Source of the DNA: Gemmata obscuriglobus
GTDB taxonomy: Bacteria; Planctomycetota; Planctomycetia; Gemmatales; Gemmataceae
Assembly (NCBI RefSeq): GCF_008065095.1
Contig: NZ_CP042911.1
Span: 8,310,001-8,342,000, forward strand
Reading direction: 5' to 3'
Length of the DNA: 32,000 nucleotides
Of this stretch, positions 7,111 through 21,644 are shown piece by piece (positions within the stretch are counted from its first letter, which is position 1; each line of letters opens with the position of its first letter). The translations under genes and the position numbers were made by a program. The notes under the pieces were generated by a model. The model saw only the letters and a program-made list of their open reading frames with translations, was not told the DNA's origin and did no database searches.

Positions 7111-8595
7111 ATGCCCCTCCGCCCCCCCGCCCGGGCCCCGCACTGGCTCACGGACCGCCGCGCGTTCCTGCGCGACGCCGGCACCGGCCTCGGCGGCATC
7201 GCGCTCGCCGCGCTGCTGGCCGAGCACGGGCTGCTCGCCGGCGACGCCGCGTCCCCCCTCCGGCCCGACATCAAGCCCAACGCCCCGCTGGGCGCCCGCG
7301 AGCCGCACTTCGCGCCGAAGGCGAAGCGGGTGCTGGTCGTGTTCTGCTCCGGCGCGGTCAGCCACGTCGACACCTTCGACTACAAGCCCGAGCTGGTGAA
7401 GCGCGACGGCCAGCCCCTGCCGGGCGGCGACAAGCTGGTCACGTTCCAGGGCGCGCAGGGGAACCTCGTCAAACCGATCTGGGCGTTCAGGCCGCGGGGC
7501 CAGAGCGGCAAGATGGTCTCGGATCTGCTGCCGAACCTCGCCGGGCTCGCGGACGAGATGTGCTTCGTTCACTCGATGACCGCGAAGAGCAACACGCACG
7601 GCCCGGCCGAGAACCAGATGAGCACCGGGTTCACGCTCGACGGGTTCCCCAGCACCGGCGCGTGGGTGAGCTACGCGCTGGGGAGCGAGAACAAGGACCT
7701 GCCCGCGTTCGTCGCGATCCCGGACCCGCGCGGCGTGCCGCAGGTGGGGCCGAACAACTGGGGCAGCGCGTTCCTGCCCGGGGTGTTCCAGGGCACGCCG
7801 TTCAGCGCCGACAAGCCGATCCCGCACCTCGCCCGGCCCGCGGGCGTGACCGCGAAGGCGGACGCCGACACCCGCGACTTCCTGAAGCTGCTCAACGCCG
7901 AGCACGCGCAGGCCCGCGGCGGCGACTCGCAACTGAGCGCGCGGATCGCGAGCTACGAGATGGCCGCCCGGATGCAGCTCCGCGCCGCGGAGGTCGCCGA
8001 CCTGTCGAAAGAGCCCGCGCGGGTTCACACGGAATACGGCACGGACGACAAGGACCGCTGGAAGGCCGGGTTCGCGCGCAACTGCCTGCTCGCCCGGCGG
8101 CTCCTGGAGCGCGACGTGCGGTTCGTCCAGCTCTTCAACGGCGCGTACGCGATGGGCGAGGGCGTCGGCAACTGGGACGGGCACAAGACCATCAAGCCGC
8201 AGTACGAGACCCACGCGGCGGTTCTCGACAGGCCGCTCGCGGCCCTGCTGACCGACCTCAAGCGCACGGGGCTGCTCAAAGACACGTTAGTGGTGTGGGT
8301 GACGGAGTTCGGGCGGATGCCGACGTTCCAGAAGGGGGCGAGCGGCCGCGACCACAACCCGAAAGGGTTCACGGTGTGGCTCGCGGGGGCCGGGGTGAAG
8401 CGCGCGTTCAGCCACGGCGCGACGGACGACTTCGGCTACGAGGCCGCGGACAAGAGGGCCACGATCTACGACCTCCACGCCACGGTGCTGCACCTCCTGG
8501 GGCTGAACCACGAGCGGCTCTCGTTCTACCACAACGGCATCGAGCGCCGGCTGACCGACGTTCACGGTGAGGTGCTGCGCGAAGTGCTCGCGTGA
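7111..8595 (+). CDS. DUF1501 domain protein (sulfatase-like fold) with a twin-arginine signal
   Basis: ATG at 7111. Tat-like [26 protein letters not shown]1501 hallmarks [27 protein letters not shown] and [10 protein letters not shown]. Confidence 0.9.
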
Positions 8596-8643
8596 CGCGT
8601 TCCGGCCCCACCGGCTTCACGCGTTTTTCGCGCTCTGCGCACC

Positions 8644-8671
8644 TTGCGGGCGCGCGTTCGCGCGTCATAAT
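8644..8671 (+). promoter_or_regulatory. Candidate sigma70-like promoter (TTGCGG-N16-CATAAT) upstream of the SWIM paralog array
   Basis: TTGCGG at 8644-8649 and CATAAT at 8666-8671 with a 16-nt spacer, in a locally less GC-rich patch after the DUF1501 stop. Planctomycete promoter rules are poorly defined, so this is weak. Confidence 0.2.
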
Positions 8672-8705
8672 TCTGCACAACTCGGCCCAAGAGAGTCACG
8701 GCAGA

Positions 8706-8768
8706 GTGGCGGCGAAGAAGGCCGCACCGAAAGCAGCGACCGTGCCCGAAGACTTCTACGCGATGTGA
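8706..8768 (+). other. 20-codon uORF or gene remnant encoding (V/M)AAKKAAPKAATVPEDFYAM-stop
   Basis: GTG at 8706 and TGA at 8766-8768, 5 nt before the ATG of the next gene. The last 30 nt (accgtgcccgaagacttctacgcgatgtga) match the 3' ends of the three downstream paralogs almost exactly. The N-terminal half resembles their Lys/Ala-rich N-termini. This frame is open from 8571, so an earlier GTG (8592) is also possible. Confidence 0.3.
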
Positions 8769-8773
8769 GCCCG

Positions 8774-9919
8774 ATGGCCAAGAAGAAGCCCGCCGCGAGC
8801 GCGAAACCCGCGGCCAAGAAGCCCGCGGCCAAGAAGCCCGCGGCCAAGAAGGCCGGCGCCGGGAAGAAGCCCCCGACCGACTGGGTCGCGGTGCTGAAGA
8901 GCGGCGCCGCCGGTGTGGCGAAGTGGAACCGGCTCACCGGCCCGGCGCGGGCCGCAATCCCACTGACCGGGGCCGACCTGAGCGGCGCGGACCTGTCCGG
9001 CATCGACCTGCGCGGGGTGTCGGCCGACGGCGCCGTACTCGCTGGGTGCAAGCTCGCGGGCGCCCGCCTCGACGGAACCCGGCTCGGCGGCACCTGGAAA
9101 AAGGCGTCGTTCGCCGGGGCCGACCTCACCGGCGCGGGGCTCACCGGCGGCGTGTTCGACGCGACCGACTTCACCGGTGCGGCGCTCGCGGGCGCGAAGC
9201 TGTCGGGCAGTAGCTTCCGCAAGGGGACGTTCGCGGGCGCGAACCTCACCGGGGCCGACGCCACCAACGTCGGCTTCACCGGGACCGACTTCACCGGCGC
9301 GACGCTGACCGACGTGGCCCTGATGCACTCCTACTTCGACAAGGACACGGCGTGGCCCGAGGGCTTCGTGCCGCCGGGTGAGATGCACTGGCACGGCACG
9401 GGCACCGACCCGCGGCTGACGGGCCGGGGCAAGAACGCGGCTGCTCACGACATCAACGGGCTGATGGCCCGGCTCCACACGGTCATCGACGAGAAGCGGA
9501 TGGCCCGCACGCTCGACATGCTCAAGAAGCAGCGGAACCAGATCTTCTCCGAGGTCGAGCCGGCGATGGTGCGCGGCATCGTGAAGAGCCAGCGCGACAT
9601 CGACACGGTCTACTCGTGCGTGCTCACGGAGGACGGCACCTACTCGTGCGGCACCGCGGACATGGCCCAGTGTCGCGGGCTCGCGGACGAGCCGTGCAAG
9701 CACCTGCTGGTGCTGGTGATCGGCCTGGCCCGGGCCGGACAGCTCGACCCCGCGACCGCGGACAAGTGGGTCGTGGCCGCGAACAGCAAGGGGCCGCGGT
9801 GGAACAAGACGGTGCAGAACCACATCGCCGACTCGTTCCTGAAGTACAAGGGCGCGCAGGCCGGCGAGATCGACTGGCGCCCGACCGAGACCGTGCCGGA
9901 AGACTTCTACGCGATGTGA
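8774..9919 (+). CDS. Lys/Ala-rich tail + pentapeptide-repeat + SWIM-like module protein (paralog 1, 381 aa)
   Basis: ATG at 8774 (MAKKKPAASAKPAAKKPAAKKPAAKK). About 30 pentapeptide units (ADLSGADLSGIDLRGVSADGAVLAGCKLAGARLDG...) end in FDKDTAWPEGF. The C-terminal module is VKSQRDIDTVYSCVLTEDGTYSCGTADMAQCRGLADEPCKHLLVLVIGL, and the protein ends DWRPTETVPEDFYAM. Confidence 0.85.
   Translation: MAKKKPAASAKPAAKKPAAKKPAAKKAGAGKKPPTDWVAVLKSGAAGVAKWNRLTGPARAAIPLTGADLSGADLSGIDLRGVSADGAVLAGCKLAGARLDGTRLGGTWKKASFAGADLTGAGLTGGVFDATDFTGAALAGAKLSGSSFRKGTFAGANLTGADATNVGFTGTDFTGATLTDVALMHSYFDKDTAWPEGFVPPGEMHWHGTGTDPRLTGRGKNAAAHDINGLMARLHTVIDEKRMARTLDMLKKQRNQIFSEVEPAMVRGIVKSQRDIDTVYSCVLTEDGTYSCGTADMAQCRGLADEPCKHLLVLVIGLARAGQLDPATADKWVVAANSKGPRWNKTVQNHIADSFLKYKGAQAGEIDWRPTETVPEDFYAM
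8807..8851 (+). repeat. Perfect 3 x 15-nt tandem repeat (cccgcggccaagaag) encoding (PAAKK)3
   Basis: The units 8807-8821, 8822-8836 and 8837-8851 are identical by direct reading. They lie inside the N-terminal tail of paralog 1. Confidence 0.9.
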
Positions 9920-9996
9920 CCGCGCCGGAGCGCGAGTCTCTGGCTACCAGACCGTCGCCCTTCCAGGGCTCTCATACACGTATCCGGTGATACTGC

Positions 9997-10079
9997 CGCT
10001 TGTGTTGACGAGCCGCGACCGCCAGGGAGCGGGATACGTGGCACCGCTCCCTGGCGGTCGCGGCTCGTCAACACAAGCG
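9997..10079. repeat. Perfect 36-bp inverted repeat with an 11-nt loop in the paralog 1-2 spacer
   Basis: I checked base by base that 9997-10032 pairs perfectly with 10044-10079, leaving loop 10033-10043 (gatacgtggca). It lies 78 nt after the stop of paralog 1. Confidence 0.9.
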
Positions 10080-10196
10080 ACACCGCAGATGGGTTCATGT
10101 ATCAGACGCGTGTTGGTTTTAGCCCCAAAGGGGCGGCCGCTGAGTAGCCAGGGGCGAGAGCCCCTGGGTTCCGATCGCACCGAGTGAGGTACGCCC

Positions 10197-10718
10197 ATGG
10201 CGAAATCCAAGGCCACACCGAAGATCCCCGAAACGCGCACGCCGTGGGACGACTTCCTCGACGCGGCGCAGGGCGTCACCGACTCCGGGGCGCTGTCGAA
10301 GGCGCTCACGATGCTCCGCGGCGAGCGGTTCCAGCTCTACGCGGACGTGCAGACCGAGTTCGTATGCGGGATCGTGCGGAGCCAGTCGTCGGCGTCGCGC
10401 GTGTACGTGTGCCGGCTCGCGCAGGACGGGCGGTACTCGTGCTGCACCCAGAACCTGATCCAGTGCGTGGTGTCGCGCGGGGCGCCGTGCAAGCACCTGC
10501 TGGTGCTCGTGGCCGGGCTGGTGAAGGCCGGACAACTCGCCCCCGCGACCGCGCTCGACTGGCTGCACAAGGCCCGCCGCATGGGGAAGACGGCGGACGG
10601 CCACAAGCCCGACAAGGACGTGGTGACCGCGACGTTCCTGAAGTACAAGGGCGCGGAGGCCGGTGAGGTGGACTGGCGGCCCACGGAAACCGTGCCCGAA
10701 GACTTTTACGCGATGTGA
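10197..10718 (+). CDS. Stand-alone SWIM-like module protein (paralog 2, 173 aa)
   Basis: ATG at 10197 (MAKSKATPK). Contains LTMLRGERFQLYADV...GIVRSQSSASRVYVCRLAQDGRYSCCTQNLIQCVVSRGAPCKHLLVLVAGL and ends FLKYKGAEAGEVDWRPTETVPEDFYAM. It aligns with the C-terminal modules of paralogs 1 and 3. Confidence 0.85.
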   Translation: MAKSKATPKIPETRTPWDDFLDAAQGVTDSGALSKALTMLRGERFQLYADVQTEFVCGIVRSQSSASRVYVCRLAQDGRYSCCTQNLIQCVVSRGAPCKHLLVLVAGLVKAGQLAPATALDWLHKARRMGKTADGHKPDKDVVTATFLKYKGAEAGEVDWRPTETVPEDFYAM

Positions 10719-10876
10719 TGTGACCGCGCCGGAGCGCGGGCCTCTGGCCCGCCTGGCTTCGCGTGTCGAGCGACGTTTCGGCGGACCGAGTTGCGATGCC
10801 ACGCGCGGAGCGGCGGGCGGGACGCCCGCGGTCCCAGGGAACCGAACAAACAGTCGGAGCCTTGAAAGGTTTGCCC

Positions 10877-13372
10877 ATGGCGAAGGCAGCGAAAGCAGCA
10901 AAAGCGAAGGCACCGACCGGCAAACTCGCCGGGCAGAAGGTCGCGCTCGTCGGCAAGTTCTGGTCCCAGCAGACGGAACTCGAACAGGCGATCAAGGACG
11001 AGGGCGGTACGCTCGTGGATGGCGAGCAGGCCGCTCCGGACATTGTGGTTCAAGGGGCAGGGACGCGCGGCAAGCCGCCCGCCGCCGTCGCGAAGATCCA
11101 GAAGCAGCACCCCAGCGTGCGGGTGCTGGATGCCGCGGGCTTCTACCAGCTCGTTCTGCCCACGGCCGACGAGTTCCTTGCAATTCTTAAGGGGCCGCGT
11201 CGCGATCACCAGTTCTGGAGCCGGATGCAGTCACGACTCAGCGTCAGCGGCGCCACGCTCGACCTGGCTGGGACGGACTTCCGCACGATCGAACTCGCGG
11301 AGGCGACCCTGTACCGCATCACCCTCGACGGCAGCGACTTCCGCAATTGCTCTCTCAGCAACGTGTCTTTTGACAAGATTAAGGGAGCCAAGTTCGACGG
11401 CGCCCGGTTCACCGAAGGCTCGTTCTCGGACGCCGAGAATTGCAGCCTTAAGAACGTCAAGATGGATGGTGTCCGCTGGAACCCAGCGGAGTTCGTGCGG
11501 TGCGACTTTTCGGGCGCGACGCTGAAGATCCGCACCGGAAGTTTCACCCGCGCGACCGATTGCACGTTCAAGAAGACCGACCTTAGCGGCGCGGAACTCG
11601 AGCAGTCGCACTTCGGCGGGTGCGACTTCACCGGAGCGGATCTGTCGCACGCCAAGCTGCAAAAGACCGATTTCACAGCCGCGAACCTCGCCGGCGCGAC
11701 GTGCGTGGACGCCGACCTGCGCGGTACCAACTTCACAAACGCGGACCTGCGTAAGGCCAACTTCCGCGGTGCGAACCTCGCCGGGGCGGATCTCACCGGG
11801 GCGAACGTGGCTGGGGCCGACTTCACCGGCGCGAACCTCACCGGGGCGAAGGTGGACGGCCTCGACGCCTCGAAGGCAAAGGGCTTCGTTCACAAGCCGC
11901 CCCGCGCGGTCGGCCCGAACATGCTCGAACTCGCGAAGGCGGCGAAACAATCCAAACAGCTCACCGCGTCGATCGAGTTGGGGCTGACCGGAACGGAGCA
12001 CGTCGAGCTGCACGCGTCGCTGCGCAGTTACGGCACACACCAGTACCCCGGAGGGGGGTACATGCACTACCAGCCCGAGCGCCGGCACACGTTCAGCTCT
12101 TCCGTAGACGCGCCGACGTTCGAGCAGGGGATGCTCAACCTCGTCGATCTCTGGTCGAAGGGGGCGCCGCGGCTCGGTTCGATCAAAGTCGAGAGCAAAA
12201 AGTGCCCGCTGAAGCCGAAAGAGCTGCTCGCGCTGGCCCGTGCCGCGTGGTGCGAGGCGCTGGAGGTCCCGATCCCCAGCGCCGACGAATGGGCGCGGCA
12301 GGAACAGGCGCAAACCGCGGCCGGCGACAAGGTGCGCGAACAAATGTTGACGGACCTGCGCGGCGGTAAAGCCGGGGTCGCCCGGTTCAACGCCCGCACC
12401 GACAAGGAGCGCGAGGCGCTCGGCTCGCTTCGCGACACGGACCTCAGCAACGAGAAGCTGGCCGGGGCGCGGCTCAACAACCTCGACTTGCGCGGGGCGA
12501 AGTTCGACGGCGCGATGCTGAGTGAGGCGTCGTTCTCTGGCTCCCAGATTCAGGGCGCGAGTTTCGCCGACGTACCGGCCCGTAAGGCGAATTTCGCGAG
12601 CGCCAGAGCGGCCGACGCGGTGTTCCGCGGCGCGATCCTGGCGAACGCGAACCTGCGGGCGGCTACGTTCCTGCGGACCAACTTCCAGAACGTCGATCTG
12701 ACGGGTGCCGATTTCGCCTTCTCCGACCTGCGCGGCGCCGACTTCACCGGCGCGACGCTGAAAAACGCCTCGTTCTCTCAAGCGAAGTTCGACGCCGACA
12801 CCAAGTTCCCGAAGGGCCTGACCGCGCCCGAAGGCGCGAACTGGGTCGGGGAAGGACCGCACCCCGGGAAAGTGGTGCCAGCCGTCGCCCTGGCGGTCGC
12901 GGGCAGCCTCGATTTCGACACGTTCCTCAAGGAACTGCCTCGGAAGGTAGATCCCTCGCGGATCGAAAAAGCGGCGGATATGCTCAAGGCGGAACGCTTC
13001 CAACTGTTCGCCGACGTGACCGACACACACCTCGTGGGCGTGGTCAAGAGCCAGTCGTACTCGGACCTGGTGTATTCGTGCCGGCTCGCGAGCGACGGCA
13101 CGTTCTGCTGCGGCACGCAGAACCTGAACGTTTGCGGCGGGCTGAAGGGGGCGCTGTGCAAGCACCTGCTGGTGCTGGTGGTGGGGCTCGCGAAATCCGG
13201 GAAATTGGACCCGGCGGCGGCGGACAACTGGGTGACGGCGAGTAAGGCGCACAAGCCGACATTGAACAAGGACGCCCTGAGTGAGACCTTCTTGAAGTAC
13301 AAGGGCGCGGAAGCCGGCGAGATCGACTGGCGGCCGACGGAGACGGTTCCCGAGGACTTCTACGCCATGTGA
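10877..13372 (+). CDS. BRCT-like + two pentapeptide-repeat blocks + unknown central domain + SWIM-like module protein (paralog 3, 831 aa)
   Basis: ATG at 10877 (MAKAAKAAKAKAPTGK) in the same gcccatggcgaa context as paralog 2. BRCT-like segment LAGQKVALVGKF...ELEQAIKDEGGTLVDG...DIVVQGAG...VRVLDAAGFYQLV (about 10916-11162). Pentapeptide blocks lie at about 11240-11880 and 12420-12830. The C-terminal module is VKSQSYSDLVYSCRLASDGTFCCGTQNLNVCGGLKGALCKHLLVLVVGL, and the protein ends DWRPTETVPEDFYAM. Confidence 0.85.
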   Translation: MAKAAKAAKAKAPTGKLAGQKVALVGKFWSQQTELEQAIKDEGGTLVDGEQAAPDIVVQGAGTRGKPPAAVAKIQKQHPSVRVLDAAGFYQLVLPTADEFLAILKGPRRDHQFWSRMQSRLSVSGATLDLAGTDFRTIELAEATLYRITLDGSDFRNCSLSNVSFDKIKGAKFDGARFTEGSFSDAENCSLKNVKMDGVRWNPAEFVRCDFSGATLKIRTGSFTRATDCTFKKTDLSGAELEQSHFGGCDFTGADLSHAKLQKTDFTAANLAGATCVDADLRGTNFTNADLRKANFRGANLAGADLTGANVAGADFTGANLTGAKVDGLDASKAKGFVHKPPRAVGPNMLELAKAAKQSKQLTASIELGLTGTEHVELHASLRSYGTHQYPGGGYMHYQPERRHTFSSSVDAPTFEQGMLNLVDLWSKGAPRLGSIKVESKKCPLKPKELLALARAAWCEALEVPIPSADEWARQEQAQTAAGDKVREQMLTDLRGGKAGVARFNARTDKEREALGSLRDTDLSNEKLAGARLNNLDLRGAKFDGAMLSEASFSGSQIQGASFADVPARKANFASARAADAVFRGAILANANLRAATFLRTNFQNVDLTGADFAFSDLRGADFTGATLKNASFSQAKFDADTKFPKGLTAPEGANWVGEGPHPGKVVPAVALAVAGSLDFDTFLKELPRKVDPSRIEKAADMLKAERFQLFADVTDTHLVGVVKSQSYSDLVYSCRLASDGTFCCGTQNLNVCGGLKGALCKHLLVLVVGLAKSGKLDPAAADNWVTASKAHKPTLNKDALSETFLKYKGAEAGEIDWRPTETVPEDFYAM

Positions 13373-13510
13373 TCGACTCCGCGAAGCGCGAGCGCTCCAG
13401 AACAGGTGCGTGCCATCAGCCGTTTATCTCCACGGCACACGTTCCGCGCGAGTTCGGTGGGCGAAGCGACACAGGATCGGTGATTGGTTCCCTGATACGC
13501 GATCCGTTAC

Positions 13511-13614
13511 TGGTGTCTGTTTTGGTTTTGTCTTTGTGGCACAGACATTCCTGTCTGTGCGGCCTTCTCGCGCCGCACAGACAGGAATGTCTGTGCCACA
13601 AGAAACAGACACCA
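13511..13614. repeat. Nested palindrome: a 30-bp perfect inverted repeat (8-nt loop) whose arms are each 9-bp hairpins, plus a 12-bp outer stem
   Basis: 13534-13563 pairs perfectly with 13572-13601 (checked base by base). Each arm contains gcacagaca-NNNN-tgtctgtgc (loops ttcc and ggaa). The outer tggtgtctgttt (13511-13522) pairs with aaacagacacca (13603-13614) across a bulge. Confidence 0.9.
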
Positions 13615-13695
13615 CAAGCCGGACCGTGAATTAGCTCGGTGGTGCCAGTCAGCCGCTTGAACAACTTGGTGGCCCGCTGGGTCGGGGAGTGGACA

Positions 13696-13748
13696 GGAAG
13701 CGGCATAAGAGTGCCGTCGAGCTGGTCCGGAAGTGGCACAAAAGTGAC
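13696..13748 (+). repeat. Two 20-nt imperfect direct repeats, GGAAG(C/T)GGCA(T/C)AA(G/A)AGTG(C/A)C, offset by 33 nt
   Basis: ggaagcggcataagagtgcc at 13696-13715 and ggaagtggcacaaaagtgac at 13729-13748 are identical at 16 of 20 positions. They lie in the 569-nt gap upstream of the ATPase operon. Confidence 0.6.
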
Positions 13749-13822
13749 TCGCGGCAGCAGCCCGCGAACGGCTCAACGGCGGTTACGCCCGACTCATTCG
13801 AGTGCCCTTGTTGTCGGCCCTG

Positions 13823-13850
13823 TTGGTGTAAGGTTCTGGTGCGAATAATC
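13823..13850 (+). promoter_or_regulatory. Candidate sigma70-like promoter (TTGGTG-N16-ATAATC) about 90 nt upstream of the 13942 ATG
   Basis: Hexamers at 13823-13828 and 13845-13850 in an AT-enriched patch. This is a speculative match by eye only. Confidence 0.15.
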
Positions 13851-13941
13851 TTGTGTCGTAACGGCGGGCGTGACCGGGTGTAACGTTTCGTGTCGGCGCG
13901 GGGCTGCGACGACCGTAGAAAACGGACAAAAGGCCGGACCG

Positions 13942-14292
13942 ATGGACGAAATCGCCGAACTCCGCGACGCCCTCGACCGGCTGCACGCCGCGATGGACGA
14001 CCTCGTGGTGCGCGGGGTGCGGGCCGCGGGTTCAGCCCACCTCGCGCGCCTGACCTCTCTTCGCGACGAGTTCCGCACCGCCGGCGCTGAGCACTTGGCC
14101 GAGAAGCTGACGACGCTCGTCGATGCCGTACAGGCCGGCGAGCGGTCCGCGGCCGGGGCGCTCATGCGAGCGGTCACGACGTTCCGGCTGTTCGACCGGA
14201 TGCTGACGCTCGAAGTGGCCCGCGGCGTCCTCGCGCCGCCCCCGCCGGCGCCCGAGTTCGGCGACGAAGACGCACACGAAGAGGACGCCTAG
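13942..14292 (+). CDS. Hypothetical helical protein with an acidic Pro-rich tail (116 aa)
   Basis: ATG at 13942 (MDEIAELRDALDRLHAAMDDLVVRG...). Coding-like composition, ending PPPPAPEFGDEDAHEEDA. The TAG at 14290-14292 lies 2 nt before the GTG of the next gene. I recognise no family. Confidence 0.7.
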   Translation: MDEIAELRDALDRLHAAMDDLVVRGVRAAGSAHLARLTSLRDEFRTAGAEHLAEKLTTLVDAVQAGERSAAGALMRAVTTFRLFDRMLTLEVARGVLAPPPPAPEFGDEDAHEEDA

Positions 14293-14294
14293 CC

Positions 14295-15416
14295 GTGCTA
14301 CCGCCCGCCGCCGACCGCCCGAAGCTCCGCGCCACGCTCGACCAACTGTCGATCGCGGTCGAAGAACTGCTTCTCGGCGGGCTCACCACCGCCTCCGATG
14401 CGACCCGGCAGACGCTCGCCGGGGCGATGCAAGAGGCCGCCCGGATGCGGCTCCTGCGCCTCGGCGGCACGCTCCGCGTCGCCACCGACGAACTCGGCCG
14501 GTTCACGCGCCAGGAGAAAACGTTCTCGCGCCGCCGGTTCACGTTCTTCCTGAACCGCGCGTGGCTGCTCAGCCGCGGGATGATTCACGCGCTCGACGCG
14601 AGCGACGAGAAGGAGTACGACCGCCTCACCTGGGCGCCGCCGTCGCAACCGCTGCCCGCCGTCGAGGTGGTGAACCTTGGGGTCGTGAAGAAGGTCGCCG
14701 AGAACGCGTTCGCGATGTTCGAGTTCCGGCTGCGGGCGGTCGCGGACGCCGGGCCGATCAAAGCGGGACAGAAGGTGAGCTGGTCCACGGTGTTCCCCCT
14801 GAAGAAGGACCAGGACATCCCGCCGGAGGGGTTCCTCCACCTGCCGCAGAAGCAGAAGTTCTCGCCGTTCCTGTTCCTCGAACGCACCAGCCTCAACGTC
14901 ACGAACGCGGCCGTGTCGGGCGACGAGGTCGGCGGCTGGAAGCTGTCGCTGACGGACCAGAGCACGGTCACGGTGGGCAAGCCGTTCGCGCAGTGGGACC
15001 GCTACCTCCAGTGGTCCGCGCCGGCCGCGGCGGAGCGCCTGGCGAAGCACGCGGCCGGGCCGCTCGACCTGGACACCGAGCTTCAGGAAGAGGTCGTGAT
15101 CCGCGACTACGACATCGGCAAGCCCGGGGACGGCGACGAACCGGGCCAGACGGTGTACGAACTGACCGCCGGGCGGCTGAAGCTCCACGCGGTCGTCGGC
15201 GCGAACCCGGAAGGCAAGGCGCTGCGGGCCGCGTTCGAGGAGGTGCGCAAGGCGAAGGTGCCGAACCCGCCACTGTTCGGCGTGATGCACTACGAGCGGT
15301 GCCGGCTCGTGCTCCAGCCCCTGACCACGTTCGCCGGCGGCCCGGACTACATCACGATCTCCAAGGAGAACGTGAACAAGGCCGCGCTGCTCAAGGCGAT
15401 GAACTTTACCTCGTAA
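14295..15416 (+). CDS. Hypothetical protein (373 aa); its N-terminus resembles the preceding 116-aa protein
   Basis: GTG at 14295. KLRATLDQLSIAVEELLLGGLTTASDATRQTL aligns with ELRDALDRLHAAMDDLVVRGVRAAGSAHLARL of the upstream gene (11 of 31 identical by eye). The rest is mixed alpha/beta-looking with balanced composition. The antisense 769-aa ORF is an Arg/Gly/Pro-rich artefact. Confidence 0.75.
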   Translation: MLPPAADRPKLRATLDQLSIAVEELLLGGLTTASDATRQTLAGAMQEAARMRLLRLGGTLRVATDELGRFTRQEKTFSRRRFTFFLNRAWLLSRGMIHALDASDEKEYDRLTWAPPSQPLPAVEVVNLGVVKKVAENAFAMFEFRLRAVADAGPIKAGQKVSWSTVFPLKKDQDIPPEGFLHLPQKQKFSPFLFLERTSLNVTNAAVSGDEVGGWKLSLTDQSTVTVGKPFAQWDRYLQWSAPAAAERLAKHAAGPLDLDTELQEEVVIRDYDIGKPGDGDEPGQTVYELTAGRLKLHAVVGANPEGKALRAAFEEVRKAKVPNPPLFGVMHYERCRLVLQPLTTFAGGPDYITISKENVNKAALLKAMNFTS

Positions 15417-15437
15417 CCCGAACCTTCTGCGCTCAAC

Positions 15438-16631
15438 ATGGCCAAGAAACCCGTACCCGCCGCCCCGACACCCGCGCTCGCGACCGCCGCGGGGCCGGCG
15501 CCGACCGTGACGCCCGACACCGTGCTCCGCGAGCCCGCCGAGCGGCGGTACGCGGACCAGCTCGAGGCGCTGCGCCAGAACGACGCCGACACCCCGCCGG
15601 CCAACTGGAAGCTGTCGCCCCGCGCGGTGCTGGCGTACATCGTCGGCACGCCCAAACCGCTCAAAGCCACCATCAACGGTAAAGCGGTCGAGGTGCCGAT
15701 CACGCGCAAGTTCTTCGGCGACGACGGGATCGTGGAGCGGTCGATCGTGACGCTCGCGTCCGAGCGCGCGCTCCTGCTGGTCGGCGAGCCGGGCACCGGG
15801 AAGAGCTGGCTGTCCGAGCACCTCGCCGCGGCCATCTGCGGCACGTCGCTGCTCACCATCCAGGGCACCGCGGGGACGACCGAGGAGCAGATCAAGTACT
15901 CGTGGAACATCGCGCAACTGATCGCGCACGGGTACAGCCCGCAGAACATGGTTCCGTCGCCCGCCGTGATCGCGATGCGGGCCGGGGCGCTCTTCCGCTT
16001 CGAGGAGCTGAGCCGCGTCGTGCCGGACGTTCAGGACGCGCTCGTGTCGATGCTGTCGGACAAGGCGGTCGCGGTCCCCGAGCTGCCCGACAACGCGATG
16101 GTGTTCGCGAAGCCGGGGTTCAACATCATCGCCACGGCCAACACCCGCGACCAGGGCGTGAACGAGCTCTCGGCCGCGCTGAAGCGCCGGTTCAACTACG
16201 TCCACATCCCGATCGTGGGCGACCAGAAGACCGAGGTGAAGATCGTTCAGCAGCGGTCGGCGGAGCTGCTGGAGCGGTACAACCTGCCGGCGAAGCTCAG
16301 CCCGCCGGTGATCGAGCTGCTGGCGACGGTGTTCCGCGAGATCCGCAACGGCAAGAGCAGCGACGGGGTGAGCATCAAGAAGCCGAGCACCACCCTCTCC
16401 ACCGCCGAGGCGATCGGGGTGGCGCTGGACGCGGCGCTGCACGCCCGGTTCTTCGGTGCCGGCGAGGTGGGGCCGGCGGACATCGCCCGCAACATGATCG
16501 GCGCGGTGGTGAAGGAGGACCAGGATGACAAGAACGCGCTGAAGGAGTACGCGACCGTGGTCGCGAAGAAGCGCGGCGCGAAAGAGAAAGCCTGGAAGGA
16601 GTTCCACGACGCGCTCGTGGAGCAGTTGTAG
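15438..16631 (+). CDS. AAA+ ATPase, MoxR/AAA_5 (YehL-like) type, 397 aa
   Basis: ATG at 15438. Walker A LLLVGEPGTGKS, Walker B-like ALFRFEELSRV, sensor-1 FNIIATANT, and ALKRRF with the arginine finger region. Confidence 0.9.
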   Translation: MAKKPVPAAPTPALATAAGPAPTVTPDTVLREPAERRYADQLEALRQNDADTPPANWKLSPRAVLAYIVGTPKPLKATINGKAVEVPITRKFFGDDGIVERSIVTLASERALLLVGEPGTGKSWLSEHLAAAICGTSLLTIQGTAGTTEEQIKYSWNIAQLIAHGYSPQNMVPSPAVIAMRAGALFRFEELSRVVPDVQDALVSMLSDKAVAVPELPDNAMVFAKPGFNIIATANTRDQGVNELSAALKRRFNYVHIPIVGDQKTEVKIVQQRSAELLERYNLPAKLSPPVIELLATVFREIRNGKSSDGVSIKKPSTTLSTAEAIGVALDAALHARFFGAGEVGPADIARNMIGAVVKEDQDDKNALKEYATVVAKKRGAKEKAWKEFHDALVEQL

Positions 16632-16704
16632 GAGGGGAAGACAGTTTTACAGCCCACTGTCGTCGGGCAGGTCCGCGTGTTGGAACTCGAGGGGCAGTTG
16701 TGGG

Positions 16705-16819
16705 CAGGAAGGCAGTTTTTGACAGGATCAACAGGATTGACAAGATAAAGACCAAGACAGATTTCTTTTGTTTTTAAATCCTGTTTATCCTGTTAATCCT
16801 GTCAGAAACTGCCTTCCTG
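16705..16819. repeat. AT-rich imperfect palindrome (arms of about 44 nt, about 39 of 44 paired) built from ACAGGAT-type 9-nt units, inside the ATPase-DUF5682 spacer
   Basis: The left arm caggaaggcagtttttgacaggatcaacaggattgacaagataaa (from 16705) matches the reverse complement of tttaaatcctgtttatcctgttaatcctgtcagaaactgccttcctg (16773-16819). My hand count over 16721-16800 gives 27 G+C of 80 nt, in an otherwise strongly GC-rich window. Confidence 0.85.
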
Positions 16820-16853
16820 TTCTCGCACTCAGCCCTCTGCGGTGAACACTCTT

Positions 16854-19283
16854 ATGTCTTCATCTTCTGCTACTTTGACGGACGCCGGGCTGGACCCCGC
16901 CGAGATCGCGCGGCGCGTCGACGCCGTGTTCGCGGACCCGCTGTACTGGTTCCCGGTGCGGCACCACTCGCCCACCACCGCGCGCCACGTCCAGAGCGCG
17001 ATTGCCGCGCGCAGGCCGAAGGTGATCTTCATTGAGGGGCCGTTCGAGGCCAACGACCTCATCCCCTTCGTGACGGACCCGGCGACCGCGCCGCCGGTCG
17101 CGATCTACTCCTCGTACCGCGACGACGACAACGTGCTGGGGCTGAACGGCCACGTCAGCCCGGCGGCCGACATCCCGGCCCGGTTCGCGGTCTGGTACCC
17201 GCTCACGCCGTACTCGCCCGAGTACGTGGCGATGAAGACGGCGGCGACCGTCAAAGCGGCCGTGGTGTTTATCGACCTGCCGCACTACGCCCGCGTCGAG
17301 CGTCACGTGCCGGAGCCGCAGGGCCAGCAGCCGCCGCGCGAGGCGCCCAGCGTCGCGCCCGACGAGGACCGGCTCATCACGTCGAGCGGGTTCTACAAGC
17401 ATCTGGCCGAGGCCGCCGGGTTCAAGAGCTGGAGCGAGGCGTGGGACACGCTGTTCGAGAACCCCGAGGGGACCGATTACGAGGCGTTCCGCCGCGAGCT
17501 GGCGACGTTCTGCGCCGCCGCCCGCGCGACCGCGGACCACGCCGCCGAGCACGCCGAAGGCACCGTCGAGCGCGAGCGGCACTTCCTGAAAGTGATCGCC
17601 GACACGCTCGCCGCGCGCAAGCTGAAGCCCGCGGACGCGATGGTCGTCTGCGGGGGCTTCCATCTGTTCCTCGACCGTGACGACAAGGCCGCGCCGCCGC
17701 CGTGTCCGGAGGGGACCGTTTACACCACGGTCGTGCCGTACTCGTACTTCCGCATCTCCGAGCTGTCCGGGTACGGGGCCGGGAACCGGGCGCCGCAGTT
17801 CTACCAGACGTGCTACGACCTCACCGCCGCCGGGCGCGCGAGCGACATCGCGATGGAGCACGCCATCGCAGTGCTGCGGACGATGCGCAAGGGCGGCGAC
17901 CCGCTCTCCACCGCCGACGCGATCTCGGTCACGCACCACGCCGGGATGCTCGCGCGCCTGCGGGGCCGCGCCCACCCGACGCTCGACGACATCTCCGACG
18001 CGCTCGTCACGTGCTGCTGCAAGGGCAACCCGAACGAAGAGGGCCGGAAGCTCCGCGACGCGATGGACCAGGCCGGGATCGGCAACCGGATCGGCAAGGT
18101 CACGTCGAAGATCGGCCGGCTGCCGATCGTGAACGACTTCCACGCGCAGATCGCCGACCTCGAACTCGGCGAGGTGCTCGGCAAAGAAAAGAAGATGTCG
18201 GCGAAGCTCGACAAGCGCGACCCGCTCGCGGCGCGGCGGTCCGCGTTCCTGCACCGGGTGTCCTACCTGAAGGTGCCGTTCGCCGCGATCACCGGCACCG
18301 GCGGGGACTTCTCCGGAACGCTGTTCCGCGAGGAGTGGCACCTCAAGTGGGACCCGCGCACCGAGCCCGCGCTGATCGAGCAGAACCTGTACGGCGACAC
18401 GGTCGAGTCGGCGGCGCTGAACCGGCTCCGGGAGGCGCTCGCCGAGGCCGGGAGCAGCGCCGGCCAGACCTGCGCGCGGCTGCTCGAAGCGGTCGATATG
18501 GACATGCCGGACCTCGTGTCCGCCGCCGAGGACGCGTGCGGGCCGGCGGTCGATACGGACCCGTCGTTCGCGTCGCAGGCGACCGCGCTCCAGTACCTCG
18601 GCCGACTGGAACAGTACGCCGCGTTCCGCGGGCTGCGGCGCGACGTGATCGCGGAACTGCTGAACCGCTGCTTCGACCGCGCGTGCTTCGCGCTGCCCAA
18701 CGCCGCCAACGTGCCGGAAGAGGAGCAGCAGGGCGTCGTGGACGGCCTCATCGGGCTGGCCGAGGTCGTGCTGCGCGACGGCGTGCGGTACGACCGCACC
18801 CTGTTCGCACAGGCGGCGCAGAACGCCGCCGCGCAATCGACGGTCCCGTTCCTGCGCGGAGCGTTCCTGGGGCTGCTGTGCGAGATCCGGGTGATTGCGC
18901 CGGGCGTGCTCGCCGCCGAGGTGTCGAACCTGGCGCAGGCGTCCACGGAGGTGATGGTCACGGCGGGCGACCTGCTCGACGGGATGCTGGCGGTGTCGCG
19001 CACGTCGCTGATGCTCGGCGCCGACGCGCTGGTCACCGCAATCGACGACCTCTTGAAGGCCGCAGAATGGGACCCGTTCCTGGTGATGCTTCCGCGGCTC
19101 CGGGCGGCGATCGAGCGGCTGTCGAACCCGCAGAAGGACGCGCTCGCGGCGACCGTCGCGCGGCACTACGGGCTCGACGGCTCGACCGACCTGCGCGCCG
19201 TCAGCGGGAGCCTGGGCGCGACAGCACTGGTGGCCCGGCTTGATGCCGCGGTGGCCGCAACATTGCGGAACTGGCCGTTGTGA
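16854..19283 (+). CDS. DUF5682 (YehM-like) protein, 809 aa
   Basis: ATG at 16854. The N-terminal YWFPVRHHSPTTARHVQSAIAARRPKVIFIEGPFE matches my recollection of the DUF5682 signature (RHHxPxxA ... EGP). It sits between the AAA+ and VWA genes, as in yehLMP-type clusters. The antisense 810-aa ORF is rejected on composition. Confidence 0.8.
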   Translation: MSSSSATLTDAGLDPAEIARRVDAVFADPLYWFPVRHHSPTTARHVQSAIAARRPKVIFIEGPFEANDLIPFVTDPATAPPVAIYSSYRDDDNVLGLNGHVSPAADIPARFAVWYPLTPYSPEYVAMKTAATVKAAVVFIDLPHYARVERHVPEPQGQQPPREAPSVAPDEDRLITSSGFYKHLAEAAGFKSWSEAWDTLFENPEGTDYEAFRRELATFCAAARATADHAAEHAEGTVERERHFLKVIADTLAARKLKPADAMVVCGGFHLFLDRDDKAAPPPCPEGTVYTTVVPYSYFRISELSGYGAGNRAPQFYQTCYDLTAAGRASDIAMEHAIAVLRTMRKGGDPLSTADAISVTHHAGMLARLRGRAHPTLDDISDALVTCCCKGNPNEEGRKLRDAMDQAGIGNRIGKVTSKIGRLPIVNDFHAQIADLELGEVLGKEKKMSAKLDKRDPLAARRSAFLHRVSYLKVPFAAITGTGGDFSGTLFREEWHLKWDPRTEPALIEQNLYGDTVESAALNRLREALAEAGSSAGQTCARLLEAVDMDMPDLVSAAEDACGPAVDTDPSFASQATALQYLGRLEQYAAFRGLRRDVIAELLNRCFDRACFALPNAANVPEEEQQGVVDGLIGLAEVVLRDGVRYDRTLFAQAAQNAAAQSTVPFLRGAFLGLLCEIRVIAPGVLAAEVSNLAQASTEVMVTAGDLLDGMLAVSRTSLMLGADALVTAIDDLLKAAEWDPFLVMLPRLRAAIERLSNPQKDALAATVARHYGLDGSTDLRAVSGSLGATALVARLDAAVAATLRNWPL

Positions 19284-19293
19284 TGAAGACATG

Positions 19294-19398
19294 TTTCACC
19301 GCAGAGGGCACGAGAGGGCGCAGAGAGAAAGAAGGCTCGGCTTCATCACGCCGTTTCTCGTTTTCTCTCTGCGCCCTCTCGTGCCCTCTGCGGTGAAA
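19294..19398. repeat. Perfect 37-bp inverted repeat with a 31-nt loop in the DUF5682-VWA spacer
   Basis: I checked base by base that 19294-19330 pairs perfectly with 19362-19398. It starts 11 nt after the TGA at 19281-19283. The arms are built of GCAGAGRG-like units. Confidence 0.9.
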
Positions 19399-19434
19399 AT
19401 CGGCCTTTCGAGTGCGACCATTGGGAGCGCGAAC

Positions 19435-20616
19435 GTGACAACCGGTAACGAGAGCGACGCCGGTCCAGTACCGGCCGACCCGCACACCCTCGCGCGCTGG
19501 CGCCTGGTGCTCGGCAAGACCGCCGAGCAGCACGGCATCAACTGCGGGGGCGACGGCGACGCCGAGCGGGTGGAAGAGCTGGTCGGGTTCCTGTTCGAGC
19601 CCGGCGGTGATGGGAACGGTGGCGGCCGGGGCGGGCGCGGGCGTTCGGCGTCGCGCGCCGGCGGCAGCGGCGGCCCGCAGCTCACCGTCCCGGACTGGGT
19701 GGACGCGGTCAACGAGCTGTTCCCGAACCAGTCCAAAGAGGTGATGCAGCGGGAGCTGGTCAAGCGCCGCGGGATCGCGGAGCTGATGGAGAAGCCCGAG
19801 CTTCTGGAGAAGATCGAACCGAACCTAGAGCTGGTGAAAACGCTGCTCACCCACCGCGGGCTGTTGAACGAAAAGACCCGCGTACTGGCGCGCAAGATCA
19901 TCGAGCAGGTGGTCGAAGAGCTGAAGCGGAAGATGCAGGTTCAGGTCGAGCAGGCGATCACCGGCGCGATTCGTCGGGATCGGCACTCGCCGCGGAAGGT
20001 GTTCCGCAACCTGGACCTCAAGACCACGCTGCGCCGGAACCTCAAGAACTACAGCGCGGAGAAGGGCAAGCTGCTGGTCGATCAGGTGTACTTCTACGCC
20101 GCCGAGCGGAAGAAGAAGCCCTGGCACGTGATCGTGGTGGTGGACCAGTCCGGGTCGATGCTCGAGAGCGCGATCTTCTCCGCGGTGATGGCGAGCATCT
20201 TTGCCGAACTGCCGGCCGTGAAGACCTCGCTGGTGCTGTTCGACACCGAGGTGGTGGACCTGTCGGACCAGGTGGGGCAGCCGGTGGACGTGCTGCTCTC
20301 GATCCAGCTCGGCGGCGGCACCGACATCACGAAGGGGCTGATGTACGCGAACGAGCTGGTGCGCCAGCCGCAGCGTACCATCGTCGTTCTCATCACGGAC
20401 TTCTACGAGGGCCGACCGGAGGCCGATCTGGTCGCGCAAACGCGGCTGATGGCCGACGGCGGGGTGCGCATGATCGGCCTGGGCGCGCTCGGGTACGACG
20501 CCCGACCGTCGTACAACAAGGACACCGCCGGGAAGTGCCGCAAGGCCGGGATGGACATCCTGGTCTGCACGCCGGAGAAGCTCGCGGAGTGTATGGCACA
20601 AATCATCCGCGGCTGA
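19435..20616 (+). CDS. VWA domain protein, CoxE-like (YehP-like), 393 aa
   Basis: I place the start at GTG 19435, after the palindrome, because the ORF-track start at 19240 would translate the hairpin. N-terminal LARWRLVLGK is typical of CoxE-type VWA proteins. MIDAS motifs: VVVVDQSGSM (DxSxS), LGGGTDITKG and VVLITDFYEG. Confidence 0.85.
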   Translation: MTTGNESDAGPVPADPHTLARWRLVLGKTAEQHGINCGGDGDAERVEELVGFLFEPGGDGNGGGRGGRGRSASRAGGSGGPQLTVPDWVDAVNELFPNQSKEVMQRELVKRRGIAELMEKPELLEKIEPNLELVKTLLTHRGLLNEKTRVLARKIIEQVVEELKRKMQVQVEQAITGAIRRDRHSPRKVFRNLDLKTTLRRNLKNYSAEKGKLLVDQVYFYAAERKKKPWHVIVVVDQSGSMLESAIFSAVMASIFAELPAVKTSLVLFDTEVVDLSDQVGQPVDVLLSIQLGGGTDITKGLMYANELVRQPQRTIVVLITDFYEGRPEADLVAQTRLMADGGVRMIGLGALGYDARPSYNKDTAGKCRKAGMDILVCTPEKLAECMAQIIRG

Positions 20617-20693
20617 TCTTTCAAGTGTCGGAGTGGCGGGTATAGTCTCACGCCAGCCGCGGGCGCGCCGGACGCGTCCGTACCGAATCGGAG

Positions 20694-21644
20694 GTGCGCG
20701 TGCGCTCAGTCGCCATTCTCTTCGCCATTTCGCTCATCGCCGCCTGCCCGCCGCGGCGCGGGCGGGTTGTGTACGTCCCGCGGTGCCCGCAACCTGCGCC
20801 GGTGGTCATCAGTGACCCCGTCAGCCCGCCAGCGACCCAGGTGGAAGAGCCGGCGAAGCCCAAAACGGCCGAAAAGCCCGCGGAGCCCGTTGCCCCGCTG
20901 GTCGCGGAACACCTGAAGGCATGGGAAGAGAAGACCGCCGCACTGACGAACGTCCGGGCCGAGGTCGGGCTCACCCGCACCGACAACGTGAGCCAGAAGT
21001 CCACAGCCTACAGCGGGCAGGTGCTGTGCATGAAGCCCAACTGTGCCGTTCTGCGCCTCAATAATGCCGCGGACAAAACTGGCACCGACTACGAGGCGTA
21101 CATCTGCAACGAGACGGCGGCGTATTGGTACAGCGGGCTCGCAAAGACGGTGACCGAGTTCAGGCGCCCCCCTGCTGATCAGGCGGCAGACGCGGTGCCG
21201 GATGATAACCCCGTCCGTCGGTGGTGGCGGTCACGCCTGCACGAACCGGCTCAGCTCCTCCAGCGCATTCCGCTGCAGTTCTTTACGCGCGTCAAGGCGA
21301 GTGAGCTGCAAGAGCGACTCGACATCTCCGTCTACAAGACCGACGAGAATTACATCTACCTGGACATCAAGCCGCGGCTCGGCAAGGACCAGCACGAGTT
21401 CAAGCACCTACGATTGGCCCTGTACGGCACGGGACCGGCTACCGCAAAGGTCGCCTACCTGCCGGCCCAGGTGTATGTGCTCAAGCCGAACGACGACACG
21501 GAAGTGTGGAAGTTCACAAACCCCCAGGTGGATCTTCCGGGCGTGGAGCCGAAGCACTTCCAGTACGTCGAGATCAAAGAGGAAGGGTGGAAGCTCTTCA
21601 AAGCCGATGGAAGTACGAGTGAGACCGAGGAGCCGAAACCGTAG
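20694..21644 (+). CDS. Lipoprotein with a LolA-like / TIGR03009-type planctomycete domain (tentative)
   Basis: GTG at 20694 or 20700, the latter 6 nt after GGAGG. Signal peptide and lipobox VAILFAISLIAAC, then a Pro/Lys/Glu-rich linker. The segment HLKAWEEKTAALTNVRAEVGLTRTDNV...YSGQVLCMKPNCAVLRL...YEAYICNETAAYWY resembles the planctomycete LolA-like family, from memory. Confidence 0.75.
   Translation: MRVRSVAILFAISLIAACPPRRGRVVYVPRCPQPAPVVISDPVSPPATQVEEPAKPKTAEKPAEPVAPLVAEHLKAWEEKTAALTNVRAEVGLTRTDNVSQKSTAYSGQVLCMKPNCAVLRLNNAADKTGTDYEAYICNETAAYWYSGLAKTVTEFRRPPADQAADAVPDDNPVRRWWRSRLHEPAQLLQRIPLQFFTRVKASELQERLDISVYKTDENYIYLDIKPRLGKDQHEFKHLRLALYGTGPATAKVAYLPAQVYVLKPNDDTEVWKFTNPQVDLPGVEPKHFQYVEIKEEGWKLFKADGSTSETEEPKP

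Follow-up and report, generated by a model that had tools for sequence, protein, structure and literature searches.

A YehLMP-type gene cluster of Gemmata obscuriglobus in which the parts of YehQ appear to be encoded by separate genes

The subject of this report is a cluster of eight genes, here named A to H, in Gemmata obscuriglobus. It occupies positions 8774 to 20616 of the window, which is the whole 32,000-nucleotide (nt) stretch analysed (contig NZ_CP042911.1, forward-strand positions 8,310,001 to 8,342,000). The region is a single conserved multi-gene system and represents a separate architectural type of the cluster formed by a YehL-subfamily MoxR ATPase, a DUF5682 protein and a VWA protein. 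By their sequences, genes F, G and H are clear counterparts of yehL, yehM and yehP of Escherichia coli. The two genes ahead of them, D and E, were regarded in a first-pass annotation, made from the letters alone, as unplaceable proteins inserted as extra partners; profile comparisons now trace both to YehQ. For protein E, the apparent homologue is the last 330 residues of YehQ, and D appears to be a free duplicate of the helical domain of E. Since both are accounted for in this way, the Gemmata cluster is read as a YehQ that has apparently been split and rearranged into separate genes, without gain of foreign proteins, and not as an expansion by new genes.

Gene content and the core proteins

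All eight genes are located on the forward strand, and their GC content at third codon positions (0.82-0.96) constitutes a strong coding signal. Lengths are given in amino acids (aa).

8774..9919, + strand: gene A, module protein with pentapeptide repeats, 381 aa (Pfam Pentapeptide, E-value 5e-23)
10197..10718, + strand: gene B, minimal module protein (module and tail), 173 aa, GobsT_70160 (module alignment)
10877..13372, + strand: gene C, module protein with pentapeptide repeats, 831 aa (Pfam Pentapeptide, E-value 5e-63, nine stretches)
13942..14292, + strand: gene D, acidic protein, 116 aa (no Pfam family; hhalign match to E)
14295..15416, + strand: gene E, 373 aa (no Pfam family; hhalign match to the YehQ family)
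15438..16631, + strand: gene F, MoxR-type AAA_5 ATPase, YehL orthologue, 397 aa (Pfam AAA_5, E-value 1e-33)
16842..19283, + strand: gene G, DUF5682 protein, YehM orthologue, 813 aa (Pfam DUF5682, E-value 4e-112)
19435..20616, + strand: gene H, CoxE-type VWA protein, YehP orthologue, 393 aa (Pfam VWA_CoxE, E-value 2e-45)

Gene B is identical (100% match) to GobsT_70160, and gene E to GobsT_70190. A scan with a sigma-70 model returned no promoters and terminators at chance level, and is uninformative for G. obscuriglobus.

Protein F contains the motifs GEPGTGKS, FRFEEL, IIATANT and ALKRRF and is 44% identical to E. coli YehL (BLASTP, E-value 1e-90). Its closest solved structure by sequence is the AAA ring of midasin/Rea1 (E-value 4e-18). 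Protein G, which carries VRHHSP...IEGP near its start, is 26% identical to YehM over the full length (BLASTP, E-value 2e-41); it is 813 aa long when read from the GTG at 16842 and 809 aa long from the ATG at 16854. Protein H is 38% identical to YehP (BLASTP, E-value 8e-93), and its metal-ion-dependent adhesion site (MIDAS) is intact in the translation (DQSGS, GGGTD and ITDF); alignment with YehP revealed no additional C-terminal domain. The first-pass annotation had named these three proteins as an AAA_5/MoxR ATPase, a DUF5682/YehM protein with an RHHSP...EGP start and a CoxE-like VWA protein with an intact MIDAS, and had related the set to yehLMPQ; all of this was borne out. Its gene H is real, and only the start, placed further upstream, needed correction. 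Homologues of H begin with MxTDPHTLARW, for which the GTG at 19435 is the sole fitting start codon, and a GGGAG lies 7 nt upstream of it; for these two reasons the start was moved to 19435 (393 aa). No meaningful match was obtained when the PDB was searched by sequence with DUF5682 and the VWA protein, or with profiles of the DUF5682 N-domain, the module and E.

D and E as parts of YehQ

Neither D nor E matched any family in Pfam, NCBIfam or PADLOC. The E family is narrow, with 215 representatives among 1.84 billion proteins, and its members are at least 62% identical across the best 120 clusters. A BLASTP comparison of B, D and E with YehQ gave nothing significant (best E-value 0.01), and a shallow E profile made from 20 close sequences reached an E-value of only 0.021 against YehQ. 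When the profile was built from 64 diverse relatives, the depth at which alone the link is visible, hhalign against the YehQ-family profile returned a probability of 95.1% and an E-value of 3.4e-8 over 314 columns, with residues 15-351 of E aligned to residues 232-559 of YehQ. The reversed control gave an E-value of 0.095.

Protein D was aligned with E by hhalign at a probability of 99.1% and an E-value of 7e-19 (D 4-104 on E 3-111). This is the N-terminal helical domain of E, which lies mid-chain in YehQ, and it is on this alignment that D is taken to be a free copy of that domain. The two proteins are encoded in one open reading frame (ORF) in 16 loci, typically of Myxococcota; D is otherwise found directly upstream of E. 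Fusion-length D-E proteins of 480-560 aa are also present among the E-family representatives. In E. coli YehQ, two canonical SWIM stretches precede the E-like region, so that the order along the chain is SWIM, SWIM, helical domain and beta domains. A single YehQ-like chain is not present in the Gemmata cluster; the C-terminal part corresponds to the separate gene E, and the SWIM part to a separate gene that is weakly matched.

In protein E, the helical domain is predicted to precede a pair of beta-barrel domains of OB-like type. The AlphaFold2 model shows a helical bundle at residues 5-112 and beta-rich domains at 118-342, and its best Foldseek matches were the tandem OB-fold proteins HIN-200, RPA, TEBP-alpha and LEF-3 (E-value 1e-6). 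The predicted local distance difference test (pLDDT) score of the model, 67.5, is mediocre, and the template modelling scores of the Foldseek matches are only 0.25-0.5; both values weaken the case for DNA binding by E. The calculated isoelectric point (pI) is 4.8 for D, 10.3 for the helical domain of E and 6.5 for its beta part.

The module proteins and their common tail

A module of approximately 170 aa is common to the C-termini of proteins A, B and C, which are paralogous by its alignment; the module family comprises 534 clusters in a large protein collection. Cys72, Cys82, Cys98 and His100 (numbering of B) are invariant across the module alignment. The last 15 or so residues, DWRPTET[IV]PED[FY]YA[ML], form an acidic-aromatic tail that is near-invariant in 77 module proteins from five phyla. 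The AlphaFold2 model of B (pLDDT 82.7) has two helices, four strands and a helix that begins at Cys98-Lys-His100.

These three proteins had earlier been called SWIM-like proteins. They do share a module, and when its profile was compared by hhalign with three independent SWIM families, the C..CxH helix was aligned each time, at weak E-values of 5.5e-4, 0.006 and 0.009 (reversed controls, 0.24-0.55). One orthologue, 83% identical, is labelled SWIM-type in UniRef. Against a SWIM assignment stand the Pfam SWIM model PF04434, which matched none of A, B and C and none of 29 module-family members at an E-value of up to 10, the Foldseek search with the B module model, which found no significant PDB neighbour, and the cysteine spacing C-x9-C-x15-C-x-H, which is unlike the canonical CxCxnCxH. 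For these reasons the module is termed SWIM-like, and membership of the SWIM family is unproven. Nor can three copies be considered distinctive, as had been proposed: one module gene is present in 23 loci, two in 17, three in five and five in one, so that three copies are not unusual. Because E. coli YehQ already has two SWIM stretches, multiple SWIM units are not new in principle.

The N-terminal regions of the module proteins are variable. In A, a Lys/Ala/Pro-rich, histone-H1-like N-terminus with a KPAAKK-type starting tract is followed by pentapeptide repeats, the SWIM-like Cys3His module and the invariant tail; the Lys/Ala/Pro fraction reaches 0.9 within a 30-aa window, and the pI of the protein is 9.35. 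Protein C has a BRCT-like N-domain, a pentapeptide block, a central domain of about 180 aa, a second pentapeptide block, the module and the tail. Lys/Ala/Pro-rich tracts were found in 14 modules and pentapeptide repeats in approximately 29. The tandem A(D/N)LXX repeats of A and C match PF00805, and both proteins belong to the pentapeptide family by its criterion. Their resemblance to Qnr, MfpA and HetL in NCBIfam is below cutoff only, and their pentapeptide regions are thus not members of those specific families. The fusion to pentapeptide repeats noted in the first-pass annotation therefore stands for A and C. Its BRCT domain does not in the same way: the Pfam BRCT model PF00533 gave no match to the N-terminus of C in the window at an E-value of up to 10, and matched 7 of 12 orthologous N-termini (best E-value 3e-6). 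Thus, of the families expected from profile searches, AAA_5, DUF5682, VWA_CoxE and Pentapeptide were recovered, and SWIM and BRCT were not found on the window proteins themselves.

At the DNA level, identity among the module copies of A, B and C is 66-82%, and orthologues of each type are present in other genera. Recent amplification or gene conversion of the three copies is ruled out on these two grounds, and the A, B and C types are by these comparisons old orthologous groups.

Some further features of the module genes were observed. The central region of C (residues ~345-525, window 11909-12452), about 180 aa between the pentapeptide blocks, matched no family and is kept in C-type orthologues of 800-900 aa. 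A 32-nt stretch beginning at the stop codons of A and B (9913-9944 and 10717-10748) is 94% identical between the two genes and contains a small CGCGC/GCGCG stem. In the Myxococcota loci L028, L031, L034-L036 and L050, a second, longer module protein (400-710 aa) is encoded 3' of the VWA gene; its N-terminal region is non-pentapeptide and partly Lys/Ala/Pro-rich, and a short module gene upstream of the D-E fusion is also present.

Distribution and architectural types

A scan with a DUF5682 alignment, limited to one genome per species, identified at least 559 relatives, and the loci of the best 80 were examined. The ORFs of these 80 loci were searched with the proteins of the window and of E. 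coli. The gene order in which DUF5682 directly follows the ATPase is common to the 80 loci, and three types were distinguished:

Type i: one or more module genes, D, E, AAA ATPase, DUF5682, VWA; in Planctomycetota, Myxococcota, Vicinamibacteria, Obscuribacterales and some Gammaproteobacteria
Type ii: AAA ATPase, DUF5682, VWA, DUF4132, YehQ; in E. coli, Paenibacillus, Brevibacillus and one verrucomicrobium
Type iii: the same core with a SWIM protein and a HEAT-repeat protein, or a SWIM-HEAT fusion; in other Paenibacillus, Planctomycetaceae, Corallococcus and Anaerolineae

The DUF5682 proteins of type i are 41-98% identical to G, and the identity tracks taxonomy. A module gene is present in 42 of the 45 type i loci with enough flanking sequence, and in 37 of these 42 it ends less than 300 nt before D. 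The SWIM/pentapeptide genes and the ATPase-VWA genes, whose synteny the first-pass annotation had set as a check, are therefore syntenic in nearly all informative loci. Three independent assemblies have the same type i gene order with gaps of 2-35 nt. The module family and the D/E family, like the tail, were found in the 80 loci only in combination with one another and with the type i clade of YehLMP. Searches by phmmer with YehI (DUF4132) and YehF (WGR) found neither in the window nor in any locus of the type i clade; both were found only in the E. coli, Paenibacillus, Brevibacillus and Verrucomicrobia type.

A candidate Tiki/TraB-like domain in DUF5682

The N-terminal ~280 residues of G are a candidate Tiki/TraB/ChaN-like domain, an assignment that, from the motifs and matches described here, is on balance somewhat favoured. 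The Tiki superfamily, whose members include metalloproteases and esterases, unites the TraB/PrgY, ChaN, DUF5694 and erythromycin-esterase families. In an alignment of 23 diverse DUF5682 N-domains, the invariant order is R-H (RHHSP), E (IEGP), S-P-E, D (FIDLP), W..E, R-E, G..H (CGGFH) and GYxxG. When the members were scanned individually against Pfam, the recurring secondary matches were TraB_PrgY_gumN in five members (best E-value 0.01) and Cofac_haem_bdg/ChaN in four; DUF5694 (E-value 5e-4) and Erythro_esteras were each matched by one. All the Tiki-clan matches converge on the R-E..M..GxxH stretch, which corresponds to the C-terminal end of the Pfam models. E. coli YbaP has a matching layout, in which GSIH is followed after 26 residues by E and then by WRD..GALH. 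The DUF5682 N-domain thus resembles the superfamily in having a strand-xxH, E, D, R-E..M and GxxH in order, and differs in being followed by a further helical C-terminal region of ~500 residues.

The assignment is weakened by the fact that every Tiki-clan match is below the gathering score, and by the comparison of the DUF5682 N-domain with a YbaP profile by hhalign, which gave an E-value of 0.017 over only 22 columns. The YbaP homologue search had returned close enterobacterial relatives only, and that profile is consequently too shallow to settle the question. On the convergent Tiki-clan matches, the DUF5682 N-domain may be a hydrolase. The earlier statement that the cluster has no obvious effector enzyme is correct in that no nuclease, TIR or caspase-type effector is present, and may be wrong with respect to this domain.

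Proposed mechanism and alternative explanations

The best explanation of the cluster as a whole is a split-YehQ variant of YehLMPQ that carries out midasin-like remodelling of DNA-associated adaptors, and it is given about an even chance of being correct. In such a system, the ATPase ring and the MIDAS adaptor would together act as a split midasin, an analogy drawn because, among solved structures, the midasin AAA ring is the one that the ATPase matches best and because the MIDAS of the VWA protein is intact. The MIDAS site, or the helical domains of D and E, would grasp the common tail of the module proteins, and ATP hydrolysis would load, extract or remodel these adaptors on a YehM scaffold. 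The N-domain of YehM, which may be a metal-dependent hydrolase, would process the bound partner. The adaptors would act on DNA or nucleoid-bound targets, perhaps in a response to damage or to foreign DNA. Proteins D and E could be the receptor for the tail, because the tail, D and E occur only together and because the SWIM and E-like units are covalently joined in YehQ; such a receptor would stand in for the covalent SWIM-E link lost from YehQ. The ATP-driven machine acting on diversified SWIM adaptors that was envisaged in the first-pass annotation is plausible.

That the targets are associated with DNA is suggested by the H1-like tracts, BRCT, the pentapeptide helices, the SWIM-like module, the OB-like barrels and the WGR protein of the E. 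coli type. Pentapeptide helices are known DNA mimics in Qnr and MfpA. In E. coli K-12, a LexA-box-like palindrome, CTGGATAAAATTACAG, which fits the loose pattern CTG-N10-CAG, is located 10 nt upstream of yehF, the WGR gene (locus L001, 6450-6465), and yehF heads the yehF-yehI genes that adjoin yehLMPQ. The strict LexA box CTGT-N8-ACAG was not found in the E. coli locus. MolR has been described as a member of the LexA regulon, and the Deinococcus WGR/DUF4132 genes, which belong to the DdrO regulon, were de-repressed on DdrO depletion (bioRxiv 10.1101/2021.07.07.451423). The site upstream of yehF is consistent with this published membership of molR in the SOS regulon. The LexA-box and regulon observations are leads and not tests.

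Several points weigh against this explanation. The identity of the partner that binds the tail is pure inference. The assignments of the module to SWIM and of the DUF5682 N-domain to the Tiki clan are weak, as described above. The beta part of E is not basic, so that DNA binding by E would be without electrostatic support. No publication was found in the literature search on DUF5682. In G. obscuriglobus itself, a spacer of 570 nt with a very stable hairpin separates the module genes from D-H, and Gemmata algarum, which matches window 13631-21682 at approximately 95% identity, D-H included, has MFS, HlyD and lyase-like genes upstream. Co-transcription of A-C with D-H is doubtful here on account of both.

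These last observations, with the hairpin at -88 kcal/mol and the 3 of 45 loci that have no module gene nearby, also form the case for two independent units, in which A-C would be functionally unrelated to D-H and adjacent by descent only. This is improbable, and the least probable of the alternatives considered. The module genes accompany D and E in 42 of the 45 loci and across five phyla, several of the gaps being below 15 nt; the tail and the module and D/E families are confined to the type i YehLMP clade; and in YehQ a single polypeptide contains both the SWIM and the E-like unit. An NTP-dependent conflict system directed against phages or invaders, with the module paralogues as diversified sensors and the Tiki-like domain of DUF5682 or a downstream target as effector, is unlikely, though less so. 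The number of module copies varies from 0 to 5, even inside Gemmata, one locus adjoins transposases and an integrase, and the ATPase gives a weak match to bpMoxR (21 bits, cut-off 27). A paper on H-NS/Hha silencing (PMC3686432) reportedly names yeh cluster genes, and their silencing is a lead only. A MoxR ATPase, a vWA protein and a large third component constitute the layout of the ternary conflict systems, among whose variable domains pentapeptide repeats are found (PMC7159879), although the same paper is silent on SWIM, YehL and YehM. Against a conflict system, PADLOC has no model for any non-ATPase component and its ATPase matches are marginal, the cluster has no effector of nuclease, TIR or caspase type, and the A, B and C types are old orthologous groups and not hypervariable. 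The strong conservation of E (at least 62% identity in the top 120 clusters) and the DUF5682 identity that tracks taxonomy would be more in keeping with a cellular function passed on vertically than with a defence island of patchy occurrence.

Somewhat less likely again is a chaperone for cofactor or metal insertion, of the CoxD/CoxE, NorQ/NorD or CbbQ/CbbO kind, with the zinc-binding modules or the ChaN-like DUF5682 as carrier or client. In its favour are the CoxE-family membership of the VWA protein, the Cys3His site that is invariant in the modules, the weak DUF5682 matches to ChaN/Cofac_haem_bdg, and the historical name molR, for molybdate regulator, of an E. coli neighbour; moreover, MoxR-VWA pairs are best known as maturation factors (PMC3893208, PMC7159879). 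No client metalloenzyme, however, is a conserved neighbour in the 80 loci; conservation is limited there to SWIM, helical, barrel, HEAT and DUF4132 partners. The Deinococcus study found the WGR/DUF4132 genes to be unlinked to molybdenum genes (bioRxiv 10.1101/2021.07.07.451423), and BRCT, pentapeptide and H1-like tracts would be unexpected in a cofactor pathway.

The split-YehQ explanation can be extended to an undescribed class of midasin-like AAA_5/MIDAS machine, in which a universal docking tail would recruit interchangeable DNA-associated adaptors to the ATPase, the VWA protein and YehM, the last acting as a Tiki-type hydrolase. This extension is doubtful. If true, it would constitute a new NTP-driven DNA-damage or foreign-DNA surveillance system that is widespread in Planctomycetota and Myxococcota, and would open a first way to the function of E. 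coli yehLMPQ. The YehL-type family is now found in at least three architectures on one core, the two orphan proteins D and E are placed as probable pieces of YehQ, the near-invariant C-terminal tail resembles a docking handle, and a possible hydrolase domain is indicated in YehM. These findings make a whole anonymous family experimentally approachable, both in E. coli and in Planctomycetes or Myxobacteria.

Flanking genes, intergenic hairpins and a deletion scar

The remaining features of the cluster are a short reading frame and four hairpins:

8709..8768, + strand: mini-ORF of 20 codons, translated as VAAKKAAPKAATVPEDFYAM and a stop
9994..10082, no strand: hairpin in the A-B spacer, 39-nt arms, 97% complementary
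13511..13616, no strand: hairpin in the C-D spacer (570 nt), perfect 43-bp stem, free energy -87.9 kcal/mol, z -12.6
16705..16819, no strand: hairpin in the F-G spacer, 42-nt arms, 88% complementary, in a stretch unaligned with G. algarum
19294..19398, no strand: hairpin in the G-H spacer, 37-nt arms, 100% complementary

The mini-ORF joins a Lys/Ala-rich start straight to the invariant module tail. By blastn against the Gemmata sp. IIL30 locus (L007), window 8254-8680 corresponds to L007 4-435 and window 8739-9024 to L007 2918-3195. Gemmata sp. IIL30 has five module genes, the first two of which are missing in G. obscuriglobus, with the mini-ORF exactly at the junction. The mini-ORF is thus probably the in-frame deletion scar of two lost module paralogues. 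A conserved micropeptide was ruled out, since the mini-ORF occurs only here and is accounted for by the deletion.

Each of the four spacers contains a different long, near-perfect hairpin, and other genomes have gaps of 2-35 nt in these places. The C-D hairpin adjoins the synteny breakpoint with G. algarum, the alignment with which begins at window 13631. The hairpins could be sites of RNA processing or stability, or footprints of mobile elements. A further hairpin is found outside the cluster at 5502-5612.

Directly upstream of the cluster is a DUF1501-like (sulfatase-type) gene with a twin-arginine-like N-terminus (window 7111-8595). It is also upstream in Gemmata sp. IIL30, and the left border is therefore conserved within the genus. 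Downstream, window 20694-21644 encodes a protein with TIGR03009, a planctomycete-specific domain (E-value 1e-108), which is also present in G. algarum and at no other related locus. It is followed at 21644-25548 by four tandem WD40 paralogues (334, 349, 305 and 285 aa), all of which end in VVWDVD[LV] and which probably form an expanded family of their own. Both they and the TIGR03009 gene were ruled out as members of the system, as they are not conserved neighbours of the cluster elsewhere, and the system is accordingly taken to end at 20616.

Comparison with known systems

YehL is one of seven MoxR subfamilies; its VWA neighbour is known, and it is listed without a role (PMC3893208). Literature searches on yehL, yehM, yehP and yehQ, on DUF4132 and on MoxR with SWIM found no functional study, and the earlier statement that such clusters have no assigned function agrees with this outcome. 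What is already known is thus the YehL subfamily with its VWA neighbour; DUF5682, the D/E family, the tail and the architecture are undescribed in the literature searched.

The closest relative is the yehLMPQ cluster of E. coli, which is also found in Paenibacillus, Brevibacillus and Verrucomicrobia and, in K-12, has the order yehF-yehH-yehI-yehK-yehL-yehM-yehP-yehQ. The two clusters have in common the orthologous AAA_5, DUF5682 and CoxE-type VWA genes in the same order and a unit of SWIM type, which in Gemmata is only weakly matched. They differ in that YehQ carries its two canonical SWIM fingers in a single chain, whereas the SWIM-like unit of Gemmata is a separate, multiplied protein whose cysteine spacing is non-canonical, whose N-terminal domains vary and which ends in a new invariant tail. 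Gemmata also has the extra free helical domain D and no DUF4132 (YehI) or WGR (YehF) partner, and its adaptor genes are upstream of the ATPase gene, those of E. coli being downstream. The SWIM and HEAT clusters of type iii share the three-gene core, and the region that follows SWIM in them weakly resembles the D/E helical domain (E-values 8e-4 and 1.5e-3). Their partner, however, has HEAT repeats, either in a protein of 600-750 aa or fused to SWIM in a chain of 958 aa, and they are without the tail, the D/E family and the pentapeptide repeats.

Among known NTP-driven systems, the ternary conflict systems combine a MoxR ATPase and a vWA protein derived from CoxE with a third part of VMAP, iSTAND or beta-propeller type, with variable domains that include pentapeptide repeats (Kaur et al., 2020; PMC7159879). 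The Gemmata cluster shares with them a MoxR ATPase, a vWA protein, a large third protein and pentapeptide repeats, and lineages with complex lifestyles such as Planctomycetes and Myxobacteria are enriched in both. It differs in that its third component is DUF5682 and not VMAP or iSTAND, and in that its vWA protein is without a C-terminal effector domain. In Pfam searches of the cluster, bpMoxR remained below its cut-off and no VMAP or iSTAND domain was found. The system itself, like its SWIM, YehL and YehM components, is not mentioned in the paper on ternary systems (PMC7159879). PADLOC-DB 2.0 gave only marginal matches to the ATPase (mad8, E-value 4.5e-5; IetA, 0.005) and none to A-E, G or H. 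A linkage of the CoxD/CoxE type was not seen, as no metalloenzyme gene is conserved in the neighbourhoods examined.

The likeness to midasin/Rea1 consists in the AAA ring, which is the best solved-structure match of F, and in the partnership with a MIDAS-bearing VWA domain. In midasin, an acidic ligand residue is held by the MIDAS, and the ligand is then pulled off by ATP hydrolysis; other MoxR-VWA pairs likewise hold a ligand through an acidic residue at the MIDAS and remodel it as ATP is hydrolysed. Midasin is one giant polypeptide with six AAA modules that acts on pre-60S ribosomes, whereas the Gemmata ATPase and VWA protein are separate small proteins.

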